Assembly: GCA_045600065.1 (NCBI GenBank)
Contig: JAZRXE010000055.1
Span: forward strand, 26,873-50,872
Direction of reading: 5' to 3'
Source: Anaerovoracaceae bacterium
GTDB taxonomy: Bacteria > Bacillota > Clostridia > Peptostreptococcales > Anaerovoracaceae
DNA length: 24,000 bases
Made by a program: the position numbers and the translations under genes. Of the stretch, positions 11,241 through 24,000 are shown in pieces (within the stretch, counting starts at the first letter, position 1; each line of letters begins with the position of its first letter). Under the pieces are notes generated by a model that did not search any database, was not told the origin of the DNA, and saw nothing but the letters and a program-made list of their open reading frames with translations.

Positions 11241-12167
11241 ATGCCCGCAGACAAAAGATTCGCAGTACTGATAGACGCAGACAATATTTCCGACAGATAT
11301 ATTAAAATAATCCTCGATGAGACCAGCAGCGAGGGAGAAGCTACCTACAAGCGCATTTACGGAGACTGGACAAAGCCCGCCCTGGGCCCCTGGAAAAAGG
11401 TGCTGCTGGAAAACTCCATCACCCCCATTCAGCAGTTCAATAACACCACAGGAAAGAACTCCACGGACTCGGCAATGATCATCGACGCTATGGACATACT
11501 TTATTCCGGCAGGGTCGACGGCTTCTGCCTGTGTTCCTCCGATTCGGATTTTACAAGGCTTGCCAGCAGGCTCAGGGAATCCGGCATGGCCGTCATAGGC
11601 ATGGGAGAGCAGAAGACCCCCAAGGCCTTTATCTCTGCCTGCAACAAGTTCAAGTATCTTGACATTCTGGCAGGCAACAGCAAGAAGGCTCAAAAGGATG
11701 CCCGGGCGGAAAGCAAAAGGGCAGCAAAGAAGAATTCCAGGGCAGCCGAAGCCGTGAAGGCAAAGGGTGCAGCCGAGGCAGCAAAGCTCGCCGCGGACGC
11801 CAGAGCCGCCGAAGCTTCGGCAGCCTCCGAGAAGATCAAGGCGGCACAGACAGCTGCACGGGCAGAGGAATACGAAGAAGACGAAGAAGATACCGGCGAG
11901 ATCACCAGTCTGGAAGACATCAGGCTGGCCCTGATAGCCATACTCAACGAAGAATCCGACGAGGACGGCTGGGTATCCACCTCCGATCTGGGCAACAGGC
12001 TGCTGAAGCGTTTCTCGGATTTCGACGTGCGCAACTACGGATTTTCCAAGCTGACCCCCTTCCTCAAGTCCATCAAGGGCTTCGAGATGAAGTCCGTGCG
12101 CTTCGAAAACTCCAGCACCCGCCAGGTCTTCCTGCGGGAATACATCCCCGACAGAGACCAGCAGTAG
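11241..12167 (+). CDS. NYN (LabA/DUF88-like) ribonuclease-fold domain protein with C-terminal OST-HTH/LOTUS domain
   Basis: Strong SD (AAGGAGG) 6 nt upstream. NYN acidic motifs are present (VLIDADN, DSAMIIDAMD, CLCSSDSDF). An Ala/Lys/Glu low-complexity linker follows. The C-terminal segment ...WVSTSDLGNRLLKRFSDFDVRNYGFSKLTPFLKSI is typical of OST-HTH. Confidence 0.8.
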   Translation: MPADKRFAVLIDADNISDRYIKIILDETSSEGEATYKRIYGDWTKPALGPWKKVLLENSITPIQQFNNTTGKNSTDSAMIIDAMDILYSGRVDGFCLCSSDSDFTRLASRLRESGMAVIGMGEQKTPKAFISACNKFKYLDILAGNSKKAQKDARAESKRAAKKNSRAAEAVKAKGAAEAAKLAADARAAEASAASEKIKAAQTAARAEEYEEDEEDTGEITSLEDIRLALIAILNEESDEDGWVSTSDLGNRLLKRFSDFDVRNYGFSKLTPFLKSIKGFEMKSVRFENSSTRQVFLREYIPDRDQQ

Positions 12168-13942: not shown

Positions 13943-16900
13943 TCACGCCGCAACGGCATTTGCGTTAACACGGTCGATAGCTTTCCGGATACCCATCCAG
14001 ACAGACAGATCCGTAAAGATCTCAACAATGCTGCCCATATCCGTAAACGGCGATTCCTGAAGCACCGAAAGATCTTTCATAAGACCGTTATGGACTATGT
14101 ATTCGACAATCTGGTTCACAAAATAGATCTGCCTGCTGTCGAGGGATACATCGTTCAGATACTCCGCGAATGCCTCTTTAGCCGCCGTCATGTCAAGACC
14201 AACGATCTCCCGGACAAATTCACCAAGCGGTTTTTGTCCGTATTCAGCCTCGTAGTCCTGCTTTGTACCGACTTCGCTCCACAGGATCTCTTCAAGAACC
14301 TTAATATCTTCTGCCGTCAGCGGGATATTACTTCTCAGTTTCGCAATGACCTCATTATCAAGGTGCTGGCGAACATAGAACTCCGCCTTTGCCTTGTAAT
14401 TCTTCAAATCATCGTTTTCAAGCTCTGAGTCATTCCAGTCCATCGAAAGGATCTCATCATCGAAATCCGTGTCATAGCGTAGTTTCTTAACTGGAATATA
14501 CTTGATCAGATCGCGCAGATTCACGCGGATATATTCAAAATCGCTGATGCCCGCAGTATCAACATAATCGGTATGCAGGATCCTGTTGATCAAATCTGCC
14601 TGGGCCATGATCTCTGGAATGTTGGCGACAGAAGCAATGCCGGAAACTTTTTTGAACAGATCAGACCGTGCGCGGCTATACTTTTTGCCTGCAAGGAAAG
14701 CCAGTTCGATTCCGTACATAAGGGCGTCAAAGCGCAGAGCCTTTGCGTCATCGTCTTCCGGAAGGATCAGCGGTGCCAGCTCCTGCCCCATCAGCAAAGT
14801 ATCTTCATAGGTGAGCGCTGTATAGTTATCCGGATTGGAATACAAGTCGACATATTTCAAATGCTGCCGCACGGCAAAGTTCTCTTTGTTCAGTTCCCGC
14901 ACCTTCCCGACCATTTCTTCCACAAGCGATTTTCGGAACGCAATCAGGTCGTTCGTCTGATAAGAAATATCCTGCAGCTTGTATGCGATCTGGGCCTTGA
15001 GCTGAAATATGGCACCCTGCAGAGCGATCATATTCGCAGTAGCCTTGCCTTTGTTCATTCGGAAAAATTCGAAGTTTCCGCAGAAATCAAAGATATAGAA
15101 TTTCTCTTTGTCTTTGCCGTCGAGCAGGCCGGGGCAGAGGCGCGTTCCGCGGCCGATCATCTGCCAAAACTTGGCCTTGCTCATGACTTTCTTAAAGAAG
15201 ACGAGATTCAGCACTTCCGGCACATCGATACCGGTATCCAGCATATCAACGGAGATCGCGATCTGCGGCAGTTTCCCCGGATCGGAGAACTCATCGATGG
15301 CGCTCTGTGCATAAGTCATATAATTGTCGATCACTTTTGCAAAGCCGGGCAGATGCGGGTATTCCTTGTTGAAGATCTCCAGGATCTTCTCCGCATGGGC
15401 ATGGTTCTTTGCAAAGATAATAGTCTTGCCGATCTTGTTTCCGTAATCGATCTTGATACCTTCGGTCATCAGGATATTCAGGACCTGTCGGATAGTATCC
15501 TCGTTAAAGATCCACTCGTTAAGAGCCGACGAAGCGATACTCTCCGGAAGCTCGCCGTTTTCATCCTCAAAAGTATCCTCGTAGATCTGCTTGTCTTCCT
15601 CGGAGAGATCATCATATACAATGCCCTGCTGGATGAACTTCAAAACCGTTTCCACAGAGACGAAGTCCACCAGATAACCGTCCTTGACAGCCTGATCAAG
15701 CTCGTATCCGTAAGTCGGGACACCGTTTTCGAGCTCAAAGATCTCGTAGGTATTCTTGTCGATCTCATCTTTCGGGGTCGCGGTAAGTCCGACAAGCGGC
15801 GCATCGAAGTAATTGAAGATATCCTGGTATTTGTTATAGATGGAGCGATGCGCTTCATCGCAAATCACAAGGACAAAATGTCCGCTGGTAAAAAGTTTCC
15901 CTTCATCGTCATGAACAGAGTCAATGACATTGAACATGGTCTGATATGTGGAAAAAACGCAGTGCGCCGTATAATTGTCTTTTTCCTCACAGAGATTGGT
16001 GACAGACAGATCAGGCAGCAGATTCACAAAGTTCCGCTTGGCCTGAGTAACAAGACTGTTGCGATCAGCCAGGAACAGAATATTTTTCACCCAGCCGTGC
16101 TGAAGGAGTACATCGCAGAGCGCAATGACCGTTCTGGTCTTGCCGGAACCGGTAGCCATGACCAGGAGCGCTTTCCGGCGATTCCGGCGGTCGAATGCAT
16201 CGCAGACCGCCTTGATCGCTGCCTCCTGATAGTATCGCCCGACTATGTTTTTGTTTATACTGACATTCTTCAGATTCGTTCTCAGAGTCTGAAGGTTAAA
16301 CTTTTTTTCGAGATCCCGCTTGGAGTAAATATTCGCACATTTTCTCTCGGGATACTGATTATCGATGATACGTGTTTCGAATCCGTTCGTCAGGAAAATG
16401 ACCGGCCTTCTATGCATATATTTTTCTAACAGATCCGCATAAAGCTTTGCCTGCTGACGCCCTTTTGCAACATCCACGCAAGTGCGCTTCGCTTCGATCA
16501 CGGCAAGCGGACGATGATCATCCCCGTAGAGGACATAATCTGCATAGCCCACGCCGGATGCATTGGGCATTCCGTTCAGTTCGACTTCGTTAAACCAGTT
16601 TACGCCTTCCTTCCAACCGGCATCGGCAAGCATGGTATCGATATAGATCTTGCGGGTCTTGTATTCCGACAGATCCAGCGGCTTGGGCACGTAGGTCTGC
16701 TGCTGCTCCGCACGGCGCTTCGTAAGCTCTTCCTTGAGCGCCGCATTCTCTTCCATCAGCTTTTTCAGGTCTACCTCAGTCTGGGCGAAAACGGCTGCAG
16801 CTGGCTCTTTATGCTGCTTCAGAAGCTCGCGATCGAAGCTTCCTTCGGCATAACTGCTGCCATAGCAGTAGGCAACAAAATCCAGGAATACATACAGGTT

Positions 16901-17236
16901 TTCCAGGCAAAGCTCTGCCTGTTCTTCCGTGATTTTCTTTCCGCCATGCGCAGCATTATTGCCTACCTTGCGAATAAAATCCATTCGCCGCCAGATATCC
17001 GTACCGATGATATCGCGAAAATCCTCGTCGTTCATCAGGCTGACAAGGGTATCCTGATAAGGCATGACAAGAGAGCTGTCCACAGAATACATCCATTTGA
17101 CAGCGAACTCCATGGCCCTGCGGCAGTTCATAACGGAGGAATCCACATCCATATGCAGAATGTTTTCTGCCGCTATAGCCACATCGGCAAACGATGCAAA
17201 CCGCGCATCTGATTTCAGGAAATCAAAGTTGGTCAT
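13943..17236 (-). CDS. hsdR: Type I restriction enzyme R subunit with N-terminal DUF4145-like domain and EcoEI-R-C-like C-terminal domain
   Basis: PD-(D/E)xK nuclease (GYADYVLY...AVIEAKR). SF2 helicase motifs I MATGSGKT, II DEAH, III GLTATP and VI QMIGRGTR. The ORF track starts at a TTG (17251). The ATG at 17236 (MTNFDFLK...) with GAGGAG 8 nt upstream is preferred. Confidence 0.93.
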   Translation of the reverse strand: MTNFDFLKSDARFASFADVAIAAENILHMDVDSSVMNCRRAMEFAVKWMYSVDSSLVMPYQDTLVSLMNDEDFRDIIGTDIWRRMDFIRKVGNNAAHGGKKITEEQAELCLENLYVFLDFVAYCYGSSYAEGSFDRELLKQHKEPAAAVFAQTEVDLKKLMEENAALKEELTKRRAEQQQTYVPKPLDLSEYKTRKIYIDTMLADAGWKEGVNWFNEVELNGMPNASGVGYADYVLYGDDHRPLAVIEAKRTCVDVAKGRQQAKLYADLLEKYMHRRPVIFLTNGFETRIIDNQYPERKCANIYSKRDLEKKFNLQTLRTNLKNVSINKNIVGRYYQEAAIKAVCDAFDRRNRRKALLVMATGSGKTRTVIALCDVLLQHGWVKNILFLADRNSLVTQAKRNFVNLLPDLSVTNLCEEKDNYTAHCVFSTYQTMFNVIDSVHDDEGKLFTSGHFVLVICDEAHRSIYNKYQDIFNYFDAPLVGLTATPKDEIDKNTYEIFELENGVPTYGYELDQAVKDGYLVDFVSVETVLKFIQQGIVYDDLSEEDKQIYEDTFEDENGELPESIASSALNEWIFNEDTIRQVLNILMTEGIKIDYGNKIGKTIIFAKNHAHAEKILEIFNKEYPHLPGFAKVIDNYMTYAQSAIDEFSDPGKLPQIAISVDMLDTGIDVPEVLNLVFFKKVMSKAKFWQMIGRGTRLCPGLLDGKDKEKFYIFDFCGNFEFFRMNKGKATANMIALQGAIFQLKAQIAYKLQDISYQTNDLIAFRKSLVEEMVGKVRELNKENFAVRQHLKYVDLYSNPDNYTALTYEDTLLMGQELAPLILPEDDDAKALRFDALMYGIELAFLAGKKYSRARSDLFKKVSGIASVANIPEIMAQADLINRILHTDYVDTAGISDFEYIRVNLRDLIKYIPVKKLRYDTDFDDEILSMDWNDSELENDDLKNYKAKAEFYVRQHLDNEVIAKLRSNIPLTAEDIKVLEEILWSEVGTKQDYEAEYGQKPLGEFVREIVGLDMTAAKEAFAEYLNDVSLDSRQIYFVNQIVEYIVHNGLMKDLSVLQESPFTDMGSIVEIFTDLSVWMGIRKAIDRVNANAVAA

Positions 17237-17265
17237 ATTGCCACTCCTCAATCTTGATTACTTAA

Positions 17266-18345
17266 CTATATGTGTGAAATTTCGGGTGTATTTTTCCAAA
17301 ACATTATTACATATTTTGATTTGTCGAGTTGCTTAACAAAATCGGCAAATTGGTTCTGCAATTCGATTGGCGGTATATAAATAGGCATTTCTGCAATTTG
17401 CCCAGACGATACTCGCGCTCTTGTTTGTCCATGAATCATACTCGAAGCTAAGAGTAGCGTTGTTGGACAATTTATATACTGGCAGACAAAGATATTATCC
17501 AAAATATCAGGATTAGGAATGTAGTGGACGCAGTCCGCCTTATTAACAGCTATTCCAACATATTCCGGAATAATGCAAGCCCTGAGATTAGGTTCTCCAA
17601 GTGTTCCAATAACAATTTCGCCGGATTTGCAAGTGTATTTCTTTAACCGTTCATAGTGTTCGGCTGGTATAAATGATTTGTCATTATCAATAAATTGCCC
17701 AACCCCGATATTGCCAAGACGGATAACTCTTATACCTTCATCTGAATAATGTTCTGATTTTAGGTTTGAACCAAACGGGCCATCACTCAATCGAATCGAA
17801 GCCTCTTTGAACGTCTTGGTTTTCCACCCATTAGGATTGGAAAATGTGTCACCAAACATCTCGACAAATCGGGCTTTGATGAGATCGTCCAGTTTTTGGA
17901 GTTCCTGTTGGCGGGCACTAATAATACTCTCGACTTTTCCAAGGATGGTGACGATCTCTTGTTGTTTTTCGAGCAAGTCCAAATTGAACGTCTCATTCTG
18001 ATAATCCTTGAAATAAATATGTGGAATCGTCGCACCCGTAAAATATTTTTCCAAGTGCATATATCGAACAACATAACAAAGATACTCTGGCAGAACATTC
18101 TCTTTTGGTAAAAGATACTGCATGGTGCCGATTACAGAGGATTTTGCAGGATGTAGCGTTGTTCTGCCAATACCTGCACCGTCCTTTACAACTGCCACGT
18201 AAGGCTTATCTTGATGATAAAAATCAACATTACCAATATAACCTGCAGCCCCATAAATTGGGTAATTTCCATTTTTGTCTGCAACATCAGATTGCTTTAG
18301 GCTCGACGAGCCTTTTTCACAAACATCTCCAAGTTTAACTTTCAT
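17266..18345 (-). CDS. hsdS: Type I restriction-modification specificity subunit
   Basis: 359 aa with two variable target-recognition regions. They are separated by a central conserved helix (LLEKQQEIVTILGKVESIISARQQELQKLDDLIKARFVEMFG). A second conserved element, PPIELQNQFADFVKQLDKSK, lies near the C-terminus. The gene is located between hsdM and hsdR. Confidence 0.88.
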   Translation of the reverse strand: MKVKLGDVCEKGSSSLKQSDVADKNGNYPIYGAAGYIGNVDFYHQDKPYVAVVKDGAGIGRTTLHPAKSSVIGTMQYLLPKENVLPEYLCYVVRYMHLEKYFTGATIPHIYFKDYQNETFNLDLLEKQQEIVTILGKVESIISARQQELQKLDDLIKARFVEMFGDTFSNPNGWKTKTFKEASIRLSDGPFGSNLKSEHYSDEGIRVIRLGNIGVGQFIDNDKSFIPAEHYERLKKYTCKSGEIVIGTLGEPNLRACIIPEYVGIAVNKADCVHYIPNPDILDNIFVCQYINCPTTLLLASSMIHGQTRARVSSGQIAEMPIYIPPIELQNQFADFVKQLDKSKYVIMFWKNTPEISHI

Positions 18346-18370
18346 CTATGTCATCCCTACAAATCCGAAT

Positions 18371-19873
18371 TTATACCCCAAGCATATTACGCAGCGCTTC
18401 CATTTCTTCGCAGATCTGCATTTCAAGCTCGTCAAGCTCCGCCATGATCTCTGTCGAACTCGGGTACTCGACAGGTACGTATTCAGTCTTTTTATATTTG
18501 TTGATGGAAAGATCGTAATCATTGGCTGCGATCTCCTCCTTGGGAACAAGGAACGATTTTTCCGTGCGCTTGCGATCCTTCTCGGCTTCAAGGTCTCTGA
18601 AACGGACGATGATGTCAGGGATATCATTCTCCGCAACAGGAGTCCGTTTATCGTCCAGAGACAGGCCGTCCGCCTGCATATCGTAAAACCACACATTATC
18701 CGTGCCGCCATGTCCGGTTTTCGTAAAGATCAGAACGGCTGTGGAAACACCGGCATACGGCTTGAATACGCCAGAGGGCATGGAGATCCCCGCCTCCAGA
18801 CGGTTGCCGTCAATGATCTCTTTGCGTATCGCTTTATGAGCCGCCGAAGATCCGAACAGCACGCCATCCGGAACGATGCAGGCACATCGGCCGCCGACGC
18901 GCAGCATGCGCAGGAAGAGTGCAAGGAACAAAAGCTCCGTCTTTTTTGTCTTGCAGACCTTGAGCAGATCCGCCGAGACCGTATCGGCATCCAGGCTGCC
19001 TTTGAAGGGTGGATTAGCGAGGATCAGACTATATTTGTCCTTGTCCGGATTCTGATCGGAAAGGCTGTCGCGGTATTCGATATAAGGGTTGTCCACACCG
19101 TGGGTCATCATGTTCATGGCACCGATACGAAGCATGGTTCGGTCCATATCGTAGCCGAAGAACATGTGGTTCATATAATGATCCTTCTTCTGCTTGTTGA
19201 AGAAGATCTCTTCTTTGTGTTTTTCCTTCAGATATTCTCCGGCAGCGACCAGGAATCCGGATGTGCCGCAGGCTGGATCGCAGATCACTTCGTCCGCTTT
19301 GGGATCCATCAGTTCGACCATCATCCGGATAATGTGACGAGGTGTGCGGAACTGTCCGTTTACTCCGGCAGAAGCGATTTTTGCAAGAAGGTATTCGTAA
19401 ACATCTCCGCGTACATCCGCCGACTGATTTCCTGTCATCATCTGATAGATCTCATCCAGAGAGTCGACGACTTTTGAAAGCATCAGCGGCGTAGGCAGCT
19501 TAAAGATCGCATCGTCCATATACTTAGAGTAAGCGCTGTTCTTATCGACGTGCAGATTTTTGATAAAGGGGAATACCCATTCCTGCACCACAGTGTACAT
19601 CTTGCCCGCGGGAAAATCATGAAATACGCTCCACTTGAGTTGCTGTCCGTCGATCTTTCGATCTCCGATCTGCACTTCATCGGCAAAAACGCTCGTATAG
19701 GACAGGCCCAGCATGGCGGCCTCCTTTGCACGGACGTTATCGGAATCGTCCAGATCGCGGATGAACATCAAATAGGTGATCTGCTCGATCACATCCAATG
19801 GATTCGTGAGCCCGCCGGTCCAGAATATTTCCCAAAGACTGTCGATTTTGTTTTTCAATTCGCCTGTGATCAT
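18371..19873 (-). CDS. hsdM: Type I restriction-modification N6-adenine DNA methyltransferase subunit
   Basis: 500 aa. HsdM N-terminal domain (LWEIFWTGGLTNPLDVIEQITYLMFIR), SAM motif I (ICDPACGTSGFL) and catalytic motif IV (LANPPFKGS). ATG lies 2 nt after the fic stop, with a GGAG SD inside the fic 3' end. Confidence 0.95.
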   Translation of the reverse strand: MITGELKNKIDSLWEIFWTGGLTNPLDVIEQITYLMFIRDLDDSDNVRAKEAAMLGLSYTSVFADEVQIGDRKIDGQQLKWSVFHDFPAGKMYTVVQEWVFPFIKNLHVDKNSAYSKYMDDAIFKLPTPLMLSKVVDSLDEIYQMMTGNQSADVRGDVYEYLLAKIASAGVNGQFRTPRHIIRMMVELMDPKADEVICDPACGTSGFLVAAGEYLKEKHKEEIFFNKQKKDHYMNHMFFGYDMDRTMLRIGAMNMMTHGVDNPYIEYRDSLSDQNPDKDKYSLILANPPFKGSLDADTVSADLLKVCKTKKTELLFLALFLRMLRVGGRCACIVPDGVLFGSSAAHKAIRKEIIDGNRLEAGISMPSGVFKPYAGVSTAVLIFTKTGHGGTDNVWFYDMQADGLSLDDKRTPVAENDIPDIIVRFRDLEAEKDRKRTEKSFLVPKEEIAANDYDLSINKYKKTEYVPVEYPSSTEIMAELDELEMQICEEMEALRNMLGV

Positions 19874-19875
19874 GA

Positions 19876-20931
19876 TTATTTATCTCCATTCCATACGTAA
19901 GAAGTATAGCGTCCGCCGCCGATCTTCAGAATATCTTCGCTCTTCAGCAGATCTGCCAGAGCTCGCTGCACGGTCACCTGGCTGATATCCGGACACTGCC
20001 CCATGACCTCCGCCCTGGTGATCTTGCCCAGGTGCCCTTTGATGATCTCTCGTACCCGATCCGGCTTTGATACGCCTTTGGCTGCCAGCAGTATTGCTCT
20101 GTCCTCGAAATCGCGATACGCTGCCAGGATCACACCGAGCATGTACGTGACAAAAGAACTGTAATCGTTTGTGCCCTCATGCCATCCGTCCGAGCTGTCC
20201 AGCAGAGCCTCGTAATAGGAAGCCTTCGTGTCGGAGATCAGTTTTTCGATACTGATATACTTACCGACGTAATACCCGTTTCTGTACAGCAGAAGCAGCG
20301 TTAGCAGACGGCTCATTCTGCCGTTGCCGTCGTTGAAGGGATGAATACACAGAAAATCCAGGATGAACATCGGGATCAGGATCAGGGGATCCATTTCAAG
20401 AGTATTGACAGCCTCGCTGAAAGCGTCGCAGAGACAGTTCATCGTTTCCGGCGTTTCCCATGCTGGCACGGGATTAAAGCGTACCGTTTTCGTTCCGTCG
20501 GCATGCTCTTCGGCGATAACGTTATCTGAATTCTTATAATTTCCGCCGATGGCTTTTCCGGTGAATTTATAGAGATCTCTGTGCAGCTGCAGGATGTGGT
20601 TCGGACGCGGGAGGATATATTCGTAGTTTTCGTGAACAGTGGTCAGCACGTCACGATAACCTGCTATCTCTTTTTCTCCGCGGTTTTTCGGAATCGTTTT
20701 TTCCCGAACGATCTTTTTGAGACGATCATCGGTGGTAATGATGCCTTCGATCCTGTTGGAGGCGTCCGTGCTCTGGATCTTCGCAATCTCCAGCAATTCG
20801 GCCAGGGCATCTTCTTTCGCCTCGATCAACGGATTTTGCCGTCCTTTGTATTCGTGGATCTGAGTCAGATAGTTCACAACGTCCGGAGTAAGGAGCTTGC
20901 TGTACTCAGTTTTGAAGTCGAATGTTCTCAT
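19876..20931 (-). CDS. class II Fic-domain protein (putative AMPylase) with Fic_N inhibitory helix and C-terminal winged-helix domain
   Basis: Complete Fic active-site motif HPFNDGNGRMSR, matching HxFx(D/E)GNGRxxR (20308-20343). The N-terminal intramolecular inhibitory motif SNRIEG matches (S/T)xxxE(G/N) (20743-20760). A C-terminal wHTH-like segment is present (ITRAEVMGQCPDISQVTVQRALADLLKSEDILKIGGGRYTSY). Confidence 0.9.
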   Translation of the reverse strand: MRTFDFKTEYSKLLTPDVVNYLTQIHEYKGRQNPLIEAKEDALAELLEIAKIQSTDASNRIEGIITTDDRLKKIVREKTIPKNRGEKEIAGYRDVLTTVHENYEYILPRPNHILQLHRDLYKFTGKAIGGNYKNSDNVIAEEHADGTKTVRFNPVPAWETPETMNCLCDAFSEAVNTLEMDPLILIPMFILDFLCIHPFNDGNGRMSRLLTLLLLYRNGYYVGKYISIEKLISDTKASYYEALLDSSDGWHEGTNDYSSFVTYMLGVILAAYRDFEDRAILLAAKGVSKPDRVREIIKGHLGKITRAEVMGQCPDISQVTVQRALADLLKSEDILKIGGGRYTSYVWNGDK

Positions 20932-20978
20932 TAATTTATACTCATTTGATTTTTAATTTGATCATTATTGTATTTTTG

Positions 20979-20990
20979 ATGCAATTGCAT
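20979..20990. promoter_or_regulatory. perfect 12-bp palindrome ATGCAATTGCAT overlapping the -10/+1 of the fic-hsd promoter (candidate operator)
   Basis: atgcaattgcat at 20979-20990 is its own reverse complement. Its last two bases are the last two bases of the -10 hexamer on the gene strand. Confidence 0.5.
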
Positions 20991-21017
20991 ATTAACACCA
21001 ATGTAGTCACAAATCAA
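20989..21017 (-). promoter_or_regulatory. candidate sigma-A promoter of the fic-hsdMSR operon (TTGATT-17 nt-TAATAT with TGn extended -10)
   Basis: Minus strand reads TTGATT (21017-21012), the 17-nt spacer tgtgactacattggtgt, then TAATAT (20994-20989). The spacer ends in TGT, giving an extended -10. The predicted leader to the fic ATG (20931) is about 50 nt. Confidence 0.6.
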
Positions 21018-21138
21018 GATAATTTAGTCATTTTGTGCCGCAATGATCAAATTAAAGTTTCGCATTGCTTTATTGATCGAATCCCTACACTGCTGCAATA
21101 CGATTTCTCGCCCATGCCGGCACCACTGAAATACGAAT

Positions 21139-21194
21139 AAACGCCTGAACTCGCTCCGAAACATAACAGTTCGGCATCGGTCTCAGGCGTTTTT
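21139..21194. terminator. bidirectional hairpin terminator after the polymerase/YolD-like operon
   Basis: Perfect 10-bp outer stem aaacgcctga (21139-21148) / tcaggcgttt (21183-21192), plus an inner 5-bp stem ccgaa (21156-21160) / ttcgg (21170-21174). On the plus strand it is followed by ttttt (21190-21194). On the minus strand it is followed by TTTATTCGTATTT. It starts immediately after the TGA of the 100-aa ORF. Confidence 0.7.
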
Positions 21195-21496
21195 CATTGT
21201 ACTTCAGGATAAGGTTCTCCATACCCTTCATCCAGGTAACTCTGTTCGGTCTCCTTGCCGGCGGTGTCGATGGCATCGCCGTAGCCGGAGAGCGCGGCAA
21301 AGGGAGAAAACTGGCCGGCGCGGTCGTGCATGCTCATGTGGGAGCGCTTAGCCGAAACATGGTGGGGCAGATCGACGATGTCTTCGTACGGGAACACCGA
21401 GGCTGCGGCTTGCCCGGTGTCCCGAGCCTCCAAAGCCGTCTGTCCGGAGTTTTTCCGATCTTTGTTTTCTGTTGGCATTTCAAGTTTTTCCGTCAT
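21194..21496 (-). CDS. short YolD-like protein (putative accessory factor of the upstream Y-family polymerase)
   Basis: 100 aa. Its ATG overlaps the polymerase stop (ATGA at 21493-21496). The central motif MSMHDRAGQFSPFAALSGYGDAI resembles, from memory, the conserved core of small ORFs that follow UmuC/UvrX-like polymerases in Firmicutes (YolD-like family). Confidence 0.55.
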   Translation of the reverse strand: MTEKLEMPTENKDRKNSGQTALEARDTGQAAASVFPYEDIVDLPHHVSAKRSHMSMHDRAGQFSPFAALSGYGDAIDTAGKETEQSYLDEGYGEPYPEVQ

Positions 21497-23028
21497 TTTC
21501 TGTGTCCGCCTATTGTGCCGTTGCGCTGTATTGCGGTAGCGCCCTCCTGCAGATCCATGCCCATGACAATGGCATTCTTGCCAAAGCGCTTGCGTATCTC
21601 CAGTATGGTCTGCTGCTGTCTGCGCTCTGCCTCGGTGTCGGCCTTCTGCGCTTCTTCTTTCTGTTTCTGCTGATCGGCAGCTGCCTGCAGAGAGAAGATA
21701 TCCAGCTGCTCTTCGATCTCTTCCGCAGGGATGTCCTCCTCCGCAATCACATGGCTGGCAATCACATACATGCGGCGTACCAGCAGCGAGGGATCAACTA
21801 TGCGGTCGAAAAGCTCCATGGTCTTTTCGGTTATGAGCTTTGTAGAGGACGTATATTTACCCAGATTTATGCTGCCGTGGGCCATCTTGGGCATGCGCCT
21901 GCCGTAGGCATCCACGCTGACCGGGCCCTTGTATTTAGCCGCCCGTGCAGGATCCGTCAGATTCAGGGTATCGTAGCCGATGTCAAGCACCATCTGATCC
22001 GACACCAGGCCCTTGTCCACCAGCTCCAGCACAAGAGCATCCGTCATCTCGCGAACCACCAGCTTGGCAAGATCGAATCCATAAGGATCCTGAAGCACCT
22101 GACCGGAGCTGATACTGTTGCTTTCGGGCTTGTATGCCTTGATATCGGCAATGGTGCAGGGCTCCCAGCCCCAGGCGTGGTCTATCAGAAGCTCAGCGTT
22201 TATGCCGAACAGGCTGTAAAGCAGATCCTCGTTGAGAAAATCTCCGGGACCGCCGAGAGAACATCTGGCAACATCCCCCATGGTATACATGCCGTGAGCC
22301 TCCAGCTTTCTGGCATAACCCCTGCCTATGCGCCAGAAGTCGGTAAGAGGCCTGTGATCCCATAGCTTGCGGCGGTAGCTCATCTCGTCAAGAACAGCTA
22401 TGCGCACGCCGTTTTCATCTGCGGGGATATGCTTTGCCTCCACATCCATTGCTATCTTGGCAAGATACATATTGGGGCCCACGCCTGCGGTAGCGGTAAT
22501 GCCCGTGCGGCTCAGAACCTCAAGGATAAGCTTTCTTGCAAACTGCTCGGCACTCAGCCCGTAGGTCCGCAGATAATCCGTGGCGTCTATGAAGACCTCG
22601 TCTATGGAATAGACATGAACATCCTCTGCAGACACATACTGCAGATAGGTCTGATAGATGCGAGTGCTGACCTCCATATACCTGGCCATGCGCGGCGCGG
22701 CAACCAGATAATCTACTGCCAGCGAGGGGTCTGCTTCAAGCTCCGGATACTTCCAGGACTTGCCGCTGAGCCTGCCTGAAGGGGAATCCAATGCCCTTCG
22801 GGCGTTCACCTCCCTGAGCTTTTGGATAACCTCAAAAAGCCTGGCGCGTCCCGGTATCCCAAAGGATTTCAGGGACGGAGACACAGCCAGGCATATGGTC
22901 TTCTCCGTGCGGCTCAGATCTGCCACCACCAGATTCGTGGTCAGCGGATCCAGGCCCCGGTCAGAACACTCCACCGAAGCGTAGAATGATTTAAGGTCTA
23001 TGGCGATATAGCTTCTTTCCTGAGGCAA
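21493..23028 (-). CDS. Y-family (UmuC/UvrX/DinB-like) translesion DNA polymerase
   Basis: 511 aa with a TTG start and AAAGGAA SD. Catalytic motifs YIAIDLKSFYASVEC and YSIDEVFIDAT are present. After an acidic/Gln-Lys-rich linker comes a C-terminal tail, ...IRKRFGKNAIVMGMDLQEGATAIQRNGTIGGHRK, typical of the Firmicute branch. Confidence 0.88.
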   Translation of the reverse strand: MPQERSYIAIDLKSFYASVECSDRGLDPLTTNLVVADLSRTEKTICLAVSPSLKSFGIPGRARLFEVIQKLREVNARRALDSPSGRLSGKSWKYPELEADPSLAVDYLVAAPRMARYMEVSTRIYQTYLQYVSAEDVHVYSIDEVFIDATDYLRTYGLSAEQFARKLILEVLSRTGITATAGVGPNMYLAKIAMDVEAKHIPADENGVRIAVLDEMSYRRKLWDHRPLTDFWRIGRGYARKLEAHGMYTMGDVARCSLGGPGDFLNEDLLYSLFGINAELLIDHAWGWEPCTIADIKAYKPESNSISSGQVLQDPYGFDLAKLVVREMTDALVLELVDKGLVSDQMVLDIGYDTLNLTDPARAAKYKGPVSVDAYGRRMPKMAHGSINLGKYTSSTKLITEKTMELFDRIVDPSLLVRRMYVIASHVIAEEDIPAEEIEEQLDIFSLQAAADQQKQKEEAQKADTEAERRQQQTILEIRKRFGKNAIVMGMDLQEGATAIQRNGTIGGHRK

Positions 23029-23040
23029 TATATTTCCTTT

Positions 23041-24000
23041 CTACTGTATTTCTCTGGAATAAAGGCCGGAGGTGCGGCGGAATCCGGGTGTTATGCCATC
23101 CTTGAACATGGCCGCGATATTTCTGCACTGATCCTTGGATTCGATGGTGAAGTACAGCGTTTTGAAGCTGACCTCGGGCATGGGTTTGTCCCCAAGATAC
23201 AGGGGCAGGCAGTTGTGCAGCTCGCTGTACTGCCGTTCGCGGCACAGCAGCGGGAACTGCTCGCCGGTGCGGTCCGTAAGGTAGTTCAGCCCGCTGCAGC
23301 CCTTGCAGCCGTCCTTTCCGGCTGCCACAGGACAGGCTCTGAACTTCATAAGAGGCAGTCTTCCGTAGGCGATAAAGCCGACAGGAAGGCAGGGCTTGAG
23401 CTTTCTCATATTTGCGAAGCTCATCTCCATGGAAAGGCAGGCATCGGCCAGTCCGAAAGCGGCGTGCTCCCGCAGAGAGATGCTGTTGAGTATGTTGAGT
23501 CCGTAGCCTCCGTGTATGCAAAGGCCCAGCTCAGAGGCGATCTGAACCGCGCCGTCGTTGTCTGCGGTCACGTGCTTCAGGCCCTTAGCCTGAAGGGCAG
23601 CCAGACGCTTCTTCATGGCAGCTCCGCTGCCGGGCCAGAGCATGAAGGGCATCTCCGCATAGAGCCGGTCGGCATATGCTTCCAGCAGCTCCGGGTGGAG
23701 CTCGATCTGGGTCACGGGCAGGATCAGGGCTTCAGTGCCGTCCGTATCGAATATCTGATCTGCGGTCTCGAAGCGGTAGCGGAAGGGATGCTCCACAGCT
23801 TCGCCCATGGGCACGGCAGTCTGCAGACGGCTGATCTCGTCTTCAGCCGCGGCGGCAGACCCGCCCCTTCCCTCTCTTTCCGCTGCTTCAAAATCGTAGG
23901 GCTTAGCGCCCTTGATATCATCCAGCTGCTCCAGGGCGCTGCGCCTTAAGGCATTCAGAGATGATGCGGGCAGCATCAGACCCGGATCAGCGGAAAGCTC
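23041..24000 (-). CDS. C-terminal part of a U32-like (collagenase-like peptidase family) protein; 5' end lies outside the window
   Basis: The reading frame stays open to the window edge: codons upstream of the listed Met read ELSADPGL. The segment LGLCIHGGYGLNILNSISLREHAAFGLADACLSMEMSF...GRLPLMKFRACP resembles the U32 TIM-barrel module. This is a family call from memory only. Confidence 0.5.
   Translation of the reverse strand, partial: ELSADPGLMLPASSLNALRRSALEQLDDIKGAKPYDFEAAEREGRGGSAAAAEDEISRLQTAVPMGEAVEHPFRYRFETADQIFDTDGTEALILPVTQIELHPELLEAYADRLYAEMPFMLWPGSGAAMKKRLAALQAKGLKHVTADNDGAVQIASELGLCIHGGYGLNILNSISLREHAAFGLADACLSMEMSFANMRKLKPCLPVGFIAYGRLPLMKFRACPVAAGKDGCKGCSGLNYLTDRTGEQFPLLCRERQYSELHNCLPLYLGDKPMPEVSFKTLYFTIESKDQCRNIAAMFKDGITPGFRRTSGLYSREIQ

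Follow-up and report, generated by a model that had tools for sequence, protein, structure and literature searches.

Introduction

Type I restriction-modification (R-M) systems are usually described as being controlled post-translationally, while the C proteins of Type II R-M systems are cassette-encoded regulators that act on the C-boxes of the R-M promoter, a form of portable self-regulation. Dedicated transcriptional regulators of Type I systems have been reported only recently; RptR, for example, represses Type I R-M islands and recognizes TAGCTA in three direct repeats (PMC12255303). DNA-binding Fic proteins have also been described. CccR of Yersinia pseudotuberculosis, a Fic protein with a helix-turn-helix (HTH) domain, represses its own promoter by binding two 10-bp inverted repeats, with a 26-bp spacer, near the -35 and -10 hexamers, and this repression needs both the dimer and the C-terminal HTH, the helices being 70.2 Å apart (PMC9755527). 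CbFic2, a Fic enzyme with a winged HTH (wHTH), binds DNA through the same domain, and DNA binding stimulates its catalysis (PMC10628234), while dimeric SoFic of Shewanella oneidensis binds the 100-bp stretch that precedes its gene (bioRxiv 10.64898/2026.07.09.737422, preprint). Here we analyse a 24-kb stretch of DNA from an Anaerovoracaceae bacterium (the window), in which a fic gene heads a fic-hsdM-hsdS-hsdR operon, and in particular the promoter region of this operon, which is bracketed by a perfect inverted repeat. Our literature search, which was incomplete, found no paper on a Fic-wHTH regulator of R-M operons.

The locus compares most closely with CccR (PDB 7XUX). Both proteins are class II Fic proteins with an (S/T)xxxE(G/N) inhibitory motif and a C-terminal HTH, which is putative in the window protein, at a sequence identity of 19% (Foldseek, 7xux). 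Both genes have widely spaced inverted half-sites at their own -35 and -10 hexamers, with a shared half-site end (...ATCAT / ATGAT...). CccR has a single palindrome measuring 36 bp from centre to centre, whereas the window has two palindromes that flank the promoter, each with its half-sites 22-23 bp apart, a spacing (~75 Å) that fits the helix separation of CccR better than CccR's own 36 bp. Furthermore, CccR is a type VI secretion system effector that is encoded alone, while the window fic leads a Type I R-M operon. SoFic displays the same order of parts as the window protein, namely an N-terminal helix, the Fic domain and the wHTH, although the match in a phmmer search of the PDB is weak and confined to residues 48-246 (E about 1e-8). 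The operator sequence and the regulatory effect of SoFic are undefined, in contrast to the four predicted half-sites of the window, and SoFic is described as a stand-alone, single-gene anti-phage defence rather than as the leader of an R-M operon.

With the C proteins and RptR, the window locus shares a first gene that encodes a DNA-binding protein (predicted here) and repeated sites in an R-M promoter. Those proteins are small, dedicated regulators, however, whereas the window candidate, at 351 aa, is an enzyme that contains a toxin-like Fic domain, and its half-sites are, unlike theirs, two helical turns apart. Invertible promoters, such as those of Clostridium difficile cwpV, the flagellar switches and the Bacteroides capsule promoters, resemble the window in having a promoter enclosed by an inverted repeat ahead of an operon for surface or defence functions. 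Unlike these, the window has no recombinase found nearby, a single orientation among its relatives, a four-copy array and a core of 75 bp. On the evidence set out below, we consider it probable that the repeat forms part of an autoregulatory operator array, through which a dimeric Fic-wHTH protein represses its own promoter and with it the fic-hsdM-hsdS-hsdR operon.

The inverted repeat and the half-site array

The repeat matches at 15/15 positions, with TTTAATTTGATCATT at 20952-20966, its exact reverse complement at 21042-21056 and 75 nt between the arms. When the 262-bp spacer upstream of fic was shuffled 2000 times with its dinucleotides preserved, perfect inverted repeats of up to 13 nt arose and none (0/2000) reached 15 nt, while shuffling of the AT-rich 149-bp core gave a 15-nt inverted repeat in 1/2000. 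The AT-richness of the region is thus not the source of the repeat, which is real; coordinates and shuffles both agree with the preliminary description of this DNA, which had reported an exact 15-bp inverted repeat, with 75 bp inside, as unlikely by chance.

From 80 species-level relatives we derived a weight matrix (consensus AAATGATTAAATTAAA), which finds 295 matches in 83 homologous upstream regions, as opposed to 5-11 in shuffled sequences. The motif, AAATGAnnAAATT, spans roughly 13 bp and occurs in four copies upstream of fic in the window, which lie, counted from the ATG, at -125, -102, -58 and -36. The most distal half-site, O1 (CAATGATCAAATTAAA, 21041-21056, plus strand, inverted relative to fic; score 16.9), holds the right arm of the repeat and marks the outer limit of conservation in the cassette. 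O2 (AAATGACTAAATTATC, 21018-21033, minus strand, direct relative to fic; score 14.4) starts 23 bp from the O1 start and abuts the -35 hexamer. O3 (TTTTGATGCAATTGCA, 20974-20989, plus strand, inverted; score 12.5) starts at the last base of the -10 hexamer and covers the expected transcription start near 20982, and its CAATTGCATCAAAA block is conserved in the closest relatives. O4 (TAATGATCAAATTAAA, 20952-20967, minus strand, direct; score 17.1) lies 22 bp from O3 in the 5' untranslated region (UTR) and holds the left arm. The inverted repeat therefore consists of O1 and O4, the outermost of the four half-sites, while O1/O2 and O3/O4 form two palindromic operators, each of facing half-sites, on either side of the promoter.

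The spacing within each operator recurs across the family. Facing half-sites (inverted, then direct) start 22-23 bp apart in 102/109 pairs, and in 84/87 pairs of the held-out set described below, which amounts to 186/196 pairs from 145 distinct relatives; this distance corresponds to about two helical turns, or ~75 Å. The distance from O2 to O3 is 44-45 bp in 42/49 loci and is fixed because the promoter sits between them. The O1/O2 pair alone is present in 20/80 relatives. By contrast, O1 and O4 agree at anything from 8 to 15 of 15 positions, mostly at 10-11, in the 49 relatives with both operators, and the window stands at the top of this range. The conserved unit is thus the 22-23-bp facing pair and not the 90-bp O1-O4 pair, and the 15/15 match of the arms represents the upper tail of half-site similarity rather than a conserved property.

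Within the window, O3 differs from the other sites in its core, TGATGCAATT as opposed to TGAT(C/T)AAATT in the other three, and the same holds for the closest relatives (L001, L002, L003 and L005). Both arms of the repeat contain TGATCA, and hence GATC, at 20959-20964 and 21044-21049, where the closest relatives have TGATTA. This position is the least informative of the motif, and since it carries only 0.08 bits, the C shared by both arms is probably neutral; the GATC would, however, make the outer half-sites O1 and O4 targets of Dam-type methylation. The weight matrix also picks out the ribosome-binding region (AAATGAGGAAATTGA-ATG) of many relatives, at 13.9-15.4 bits, as a fifth half-site in direct orientation, as in L028 and L081, where it lies at -16 relative to the ATG and the Shine-Dalgarno GAGG falls inside the operator-like motif. 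In the window (20932-20951), a 2-nt insertion (AAATGAGTATAAATTA) breaks this match. The fifth site could be a chance resemblance or an added layer of control. An RNA hairpin formed by O3/O4 in the 5' UTR was ruled out, given that no stable fold was obtained (-1.5 kcal/mol, z = +0.7).

The promoter between the operators

Between the two operators, on the minus strand, lie a -35 hexamer TTGATT (21012-21017) and, 17 nt after it, a -10 hexamer TAATAT (20989-20994), both read from the sequence. They align with the TTGAC(A/T) and the TATAAT-like hexamers of the relatives, such that the window promoter, an 8/12 match to the consensus, is homologous in position to a near-consensus TTGACA-17-TATAAT. 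The sigma-A promoter that the preliminary description had placed inside the repeat, reading toward fic on the minus strand, is borne out by this positional match, with the window's own copy at 8/12. A generic promoter scan did not call TTGATT/TAATAT, calling another, overlapping 9/12 site instead, nor did it call a terminator at 21139-21192; we regard homology as more informative than such a scan. A Bacteroidetes-type promoter, sought by eye through its TAnnTTTG / TTTG motifs, was dropped from consideration, the relatives being Firmicutes with classical -35/-10 hexamers.

Relatives and mobility of the cassette

The search for Fic homologues yielded at least 8000 candidates, all with E ≤ 1e-20. 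Close relatives (85-90% identity) occur in differing contexts, one behind GMP synthase and another behind an unrelated 175-aa open reading frame (ORF). Approximately 130 bp upstream of fic are homologous across the close relatives; this homology begins exactly at O1, the distal arm, with none upstream of it. The hosts of the cassette are labelled Clostridia, Spirochaetia, Dehalococcoidales and Alloscardovia. As the sites thus move with the cassette among unrelated contexts and hosts, their reader is most simply encoded in the cassette.

Among 79 relatives with enough downstream DNA, hsdM directly follows fic in 65, and in the other 14 (about one in six) fic stands alone or ahead of other genes. 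The six such loci that were inspected (L034, L061, L008, L010, L057 and L081) all keep the operator-promoter module, and the module therefore belongs to fic. In L034, fic is followed by a 382-aa ORF and an ATPase-like ORF, and in L061 by a 631-aa ORF.

The Fic protein and covariation with the operator core

The fic gene (19876-20931, minus strand), the first of the operon, encodes a 351-aa class II, SoFic-like Fic protein. Its translation contains the inhibitory motif S58-N-R-I-E62-G63 and the catalytic motif H197-PFNDGNGRMSR, which fit the class II pattern of HxFx(D/E)GNGRxxR with an N-terminal (S/T)xxxE(G/N). The protein matches the Fic family of Pfam (2.3e-15) and the PADLOC protein model for the SoFic anti-phage system, PDLC03963 (1.3e-34), over residues 24-343. 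The match to PDB entry 8UQU has an E-value of 1.6e-82; this entry, from structural genomics, covers the N-terminal domain of a Bordetella Fic protein, and no literature on it was found. More distant matches, by both sequence and fold, are SoFic, CbFic2 and CccR (7XUX).

An AlphaFold2 (AF2) model of the protein places helices at residues 289-298, 306-312 and 318-330 and strands at 334-338 and 344-347, that is, three helices and a two-strand wing. Residues 289-347 are accordingly modelled as a winged helix-turn-helix whose third helix starts at residue 318. The putative C-terminal wHTH (19891-20067, minus strand) is suggested by this model, by the reach of the SoFic match to residue 343, by a weak DIP2311-like_C match and by the operator covariation described here, while the putative recognition helix, residues 318-330 (19942-19980, minus strand), is taken from the model.

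At positions 7-9, the variable core, half-sites of one locus resemble each other more than those of different loci (0/2000 permutations), and the halves of a palindrome often share rare cores, for example CGAGA/CGAGA or TGCAG/TGCAG. Ranked by their association with the core, the top three of 199 variable Fic columns are residues 322, 319 and 318, and the chance of all three falling in the helix 318-330 is about 9e-5. When divergence elsewhere in the protein is controlled for, in a partial Mantel test on sliding segments of seven residues, the signal is highest for the segments starting at 316-318 (r = 0.46, 0/2000 permutations), while the median of the 344 segments is about 0. Across the aligned loci, then, the operator core co-varies with residues 318, 319 and 322 of the predicted recognition helix.

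These residues are associated with distinct cores. Proteins with T319 go with half-sites of core TGACTAAATT, and T or K at 319 more generally with a core of TGAC; K319 together with E322 is found with TGACTAT(A/G)TT, and R318-I319-E322 with TGATGCA(A/G)TT. The type to which the window belongs, Q318-V/I319-Q322, is found with TGAT(T/A/C)AAATT. The residue-core rule was derived from 70 loci and then applied to a held-out set of 65 further metagenome loci, 62 of which could be scored. Here, T/K319 predicted a C after TGA in 13/14 loci and V/I319 predicted its absence in 47/48, so that the rule was correct in 60/62 (Fisher 2e-11, phylogeny uncorrected). The association of R318/K318 with G at core position 8 was weak in the held-out set (4/5 versus 20/57, p = 0.07). 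Three held-out loci, L173, L175 and L178, have divergent recognition helices (S-A-T-T-I-E-R, S-Q-T-T-V-E-K) and no weight-matrix site, and may use an operator of different sequence.

Proposed negative autoregulation and its variants

The operon's first product, Fic, with its putative wHTH, most likely reads the four half-sites. In the scheme that we propose, a Fic dimer would sit on two facing half-sites ~75 Å apart, with O1/O2 ending against the -35 hexamer and O3/O4 extending from the -10 hexamer over the transcription start and the 5' UTR. Occupation of either operator would exclude or block RNA polymerase, and Fic would in this way lower its own level and, along with it, that of the Type I R-M enzymes. 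Binding by Fic, its dimerisation and the negative sign of control are what we infer here, the sign because the sites overlap the -35, the -10 and the start site and because CccR offers a precedent. The near-consensus promoter of the relatives fits a strong promoter under a repressor better than an activator-dependent one. The preliminary description had mentioned paired operators for the Fic wHTH among its alternatives; this idea has gained from the site and covariation evidence, while the pairing that it assumed has given way to O1-O2 and O3-O4 as the functional pairs, in place of O1-O4.

Several points weigh against this proposal. Phylogeny is only incompletely corrected for in the covariation tests, and many of the held-out loci belong to clades of the training set. 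The AF2 model is of moderate quality, with a mean pLDDT (predicted local distance difference test) of 64.6 and values of 60-75 in the C-terminal domain, and the Pfam DIP2311-like_C match (residues 301-345) falls below threshold, at 17.5 bits where 27 are required. The spacing of the half-sites is not that of CccR, and the dimer geometry is an assumption. The divergent core of O3 does not fit a simple one-protein code; in other clades, this core goes with an R318/E322 helix. Finally, given the weak 8/12 promoter of the window, an activating role of the -35-proximal operator is conceivable.

The last point leads to the main variant of the proposal, a biphasic scheme in the manner of C proteins, in which Fic at O1/O2 would activate a weak promoter and, at higher concentration, would repress it from O3/O4. 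The end of O2, 0-3 nt from the -35 hexamer, is at a position typical of class II activators, and the weakness of the window promoter would suit such an arrangement, as would the score of O3, the lowest of the four and consistent with a lower affinity, and the 20/80 relatives that have only the O1/O2 pair. Most relatives, however, have near-consensus -35/-10 hexamers that need no activator, and CccR, the sole characterised homologue, is a plain repressor. We consider activation followed by repression unlikely.

Negative autoregulation by Fic is also to be weighed against two arrangements that we judge to be quite unlikely, namely that a host regulator other than Fic binds the half-sites, or that two dimers bridge the operators through a DNA loop, bringing O1 and O4 together, in line with the looping repressor named among the alternatives of the preliminary description. 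A loop would be favoured by the distance between the operators, about 66 bp from centre to centre and near a whole number of helical turns, and by the perfect identity of O1 and O4 in the window, at the top of the family distribution. The inter-operator distance is, however, simply set by the promoter that lies between the operators, and a single operator is found in 20/80 loci. As to a host regulator, both cassette and sites are found across several phyla amid unrelated neighbouring genes, and the cores of the sites track residues of the Fic recognition helix.

Inversion and other readings of the repeat

The preliminary description had favoured an invertible promoter, for which a recombinase encoded in trans would flip 20967-21041 between the 15-bp repeats and so turn the operon ON or OFF. 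In favour of this, the 15-bp inverted repeat around the promoter is perfect, and a terminator lies on the far side of the segment. The arms belong, however, to a four-copy motif in which the 22-23-bp pair, and not the 90-bp pair, is the conserved unit; they are not kept as a matched pair in the 49 relatives with both operators; and the 75-bp core is short. No recombinase domain was found among the large ORFs scanned in the window.

The orientation of the promoter in the relatives also speaks against inversion. The relatives' TTGACA-17-TATAAT scores better toward fic in 67/80 loci and better in the reversed sense in one. In a stricter test of 145 distinct loci, which required a direct half-site followed by a -35/-10 pair, the orientation was canonical in 121, reverse-only in none, both in one and undecided in 23. 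Twenty independent metagenome assemblies of one relative, 77% identical, all (20/20) show a single orientation, although O1 and O4 match poorly in this relative, which makes it a weak test. The paired-arm pattern TTTAATTTGATCATT-N60-90-AATGATCAAATTAAA, which would match either orientation, had 0 matches in metagenome contigs. Inversion in the source isolate is thus unsupported rather than disproved, and we consider the switch very improbable as an account of this locus.

Scarcely credible are the remaining proposals, that the repeat marks the ends of a 105-bp element resembling a miniature inverted-repeat transposable element (MITE), an alternative raised in the same description and suggested by terminal inverted repeats around an AT-rich interior, or that the half-sites, lying upstream of an R-M operon, are recognition sites of the Type I enzyme itself: no copy of the 15-mer beyond the two arms was found in the 24-kb window, even with up to two mismatches allowed, the paired arms were absent from the metagenome contigs searched and the segment always lies upstream of fic with the same internal promoter, while L027, 80% identical to the window in the first HsdS target-recognition domain, has another operator core (TGACGAGATT) and therefore indicates that the half-sites are not targets of the R-M enzyme, and the loci that share the operator core of the window gave no such HsdS match.

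Implications

These observations are of value for the operator grammar that they reveal across the family, for the recognition-helix code and for their bearing on the control of Type I R-M systems. If negative autoregulation by Fic is correct, an enzyme of the toxin-like Fic kind also serves to repress widespread fic-hsdMSR cassettes in hosts of several phyla, which would explain the safe establishment of these cassettes after horizontal transfer. The family would also constitute a natural series of operator/recognition-helix pairs, from which a testable DNA-recognition code of Fic-wHTH proteins could be drawn. The locus holds a caution as well, in that a perfect inverted repeat around a promoter can consist of the outer half-sites of tandem operators and need not be a phase-variation switch.

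A wider interpretation, which we put forward tentatively and with more doubt than confidence, is that Fic-wHTH proteins serve a very large group of Type I R-M operons of gut anaerobes as portable master regulators, functional analogues of the C proteins fused to a toxin-like AMPylase, with a simple, evolvable code and possibly with gating of Fic activity. Such a code, of residues 318/319/322 against half-site positions 7-9, would prevent cross-regulation among co-resident cassettes. Gating by the operator is suggested because DNA binding stimulates the catalysis of the related CbFic2 (PMC10628234); operator occupancy could then gate Fic activity and couple R-M expression to an abortive-infection response.

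The operon and its surroundings

The genes fic, hsdM (18371-19873), hsdS (17266-18345) and hsdR (13943-17251) form a tight minus-strand operon with intergenic gaps of -4 to 25 nt. The three R-M genes, all identified by Pfam and PADLOC matches, together span 13943-19873. The HsdR protein carries an N-terminal DUF4145 domain (residues 28-118) ahead of the usual HSDR_N/ResIII/helicase/EcoEI_R_C domains. The G+C content across hsdS (17101-18300) is 0.38-0.43, compared to roughly 0.45-0.56 in the neighbouring DNA, and the first target-recognition domain of HsdS is 80% identical to that of L027, while the Fic proteins of these two loci are only 68% identical. Both observations are consistent with a shuffling of recognition domains between cassettes.

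Upstream of the promoter region, an inverted repeat (I5) at 21139-21192 forms a hairpin terminator that is bidirectional, with folds of -26.5 and -23.7 kcal/mol on the two strands and z-scores of -3.6 and -3.9. It directly follows the stop codon (21194) of an upstream minus-strand ORF, and is first of all the terminator of the upstream minus-strand operon, insulating the fic promoter. As the hairpin ends the upstream operon, the fic operon needs its own promoter. A plus-strand terminator had previously been noted at 21139-21194; the terminator stands, whereas its restriction to the plus strand does not, given that it folds on both strands and ends the upstream operon. That operon (21194-23976, minus strand) encodes a 311-aa protein with no Pfam match and weak U32-peptidase/UbiV-like NCBIfam matches, a 511-aa polymerase of the Y family (ImpB/MucB/SamB, DinB-like) and, with its start overlapping the stop of the polymerase gene by 4 nt, a 100-aa ORF.

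Elsewhere the window is chromosomal, with mraZ-rsmH-PBP-murE-mraY-murD-ftsW, RNase HII and other housekeeping genes. This dcw cluster includes a penicillin-binding protein (PBP) with a PASTA domain and has about 52% GC, features that would suit a Clostridia-like Firmicute. A 308-aa protein with NYN ribonuclease and OST-HTH/LOTUS domains is encoded at 11241-12167 on the plus strand, where it adjoins a polysaccharide deacetylase and RNase HII.

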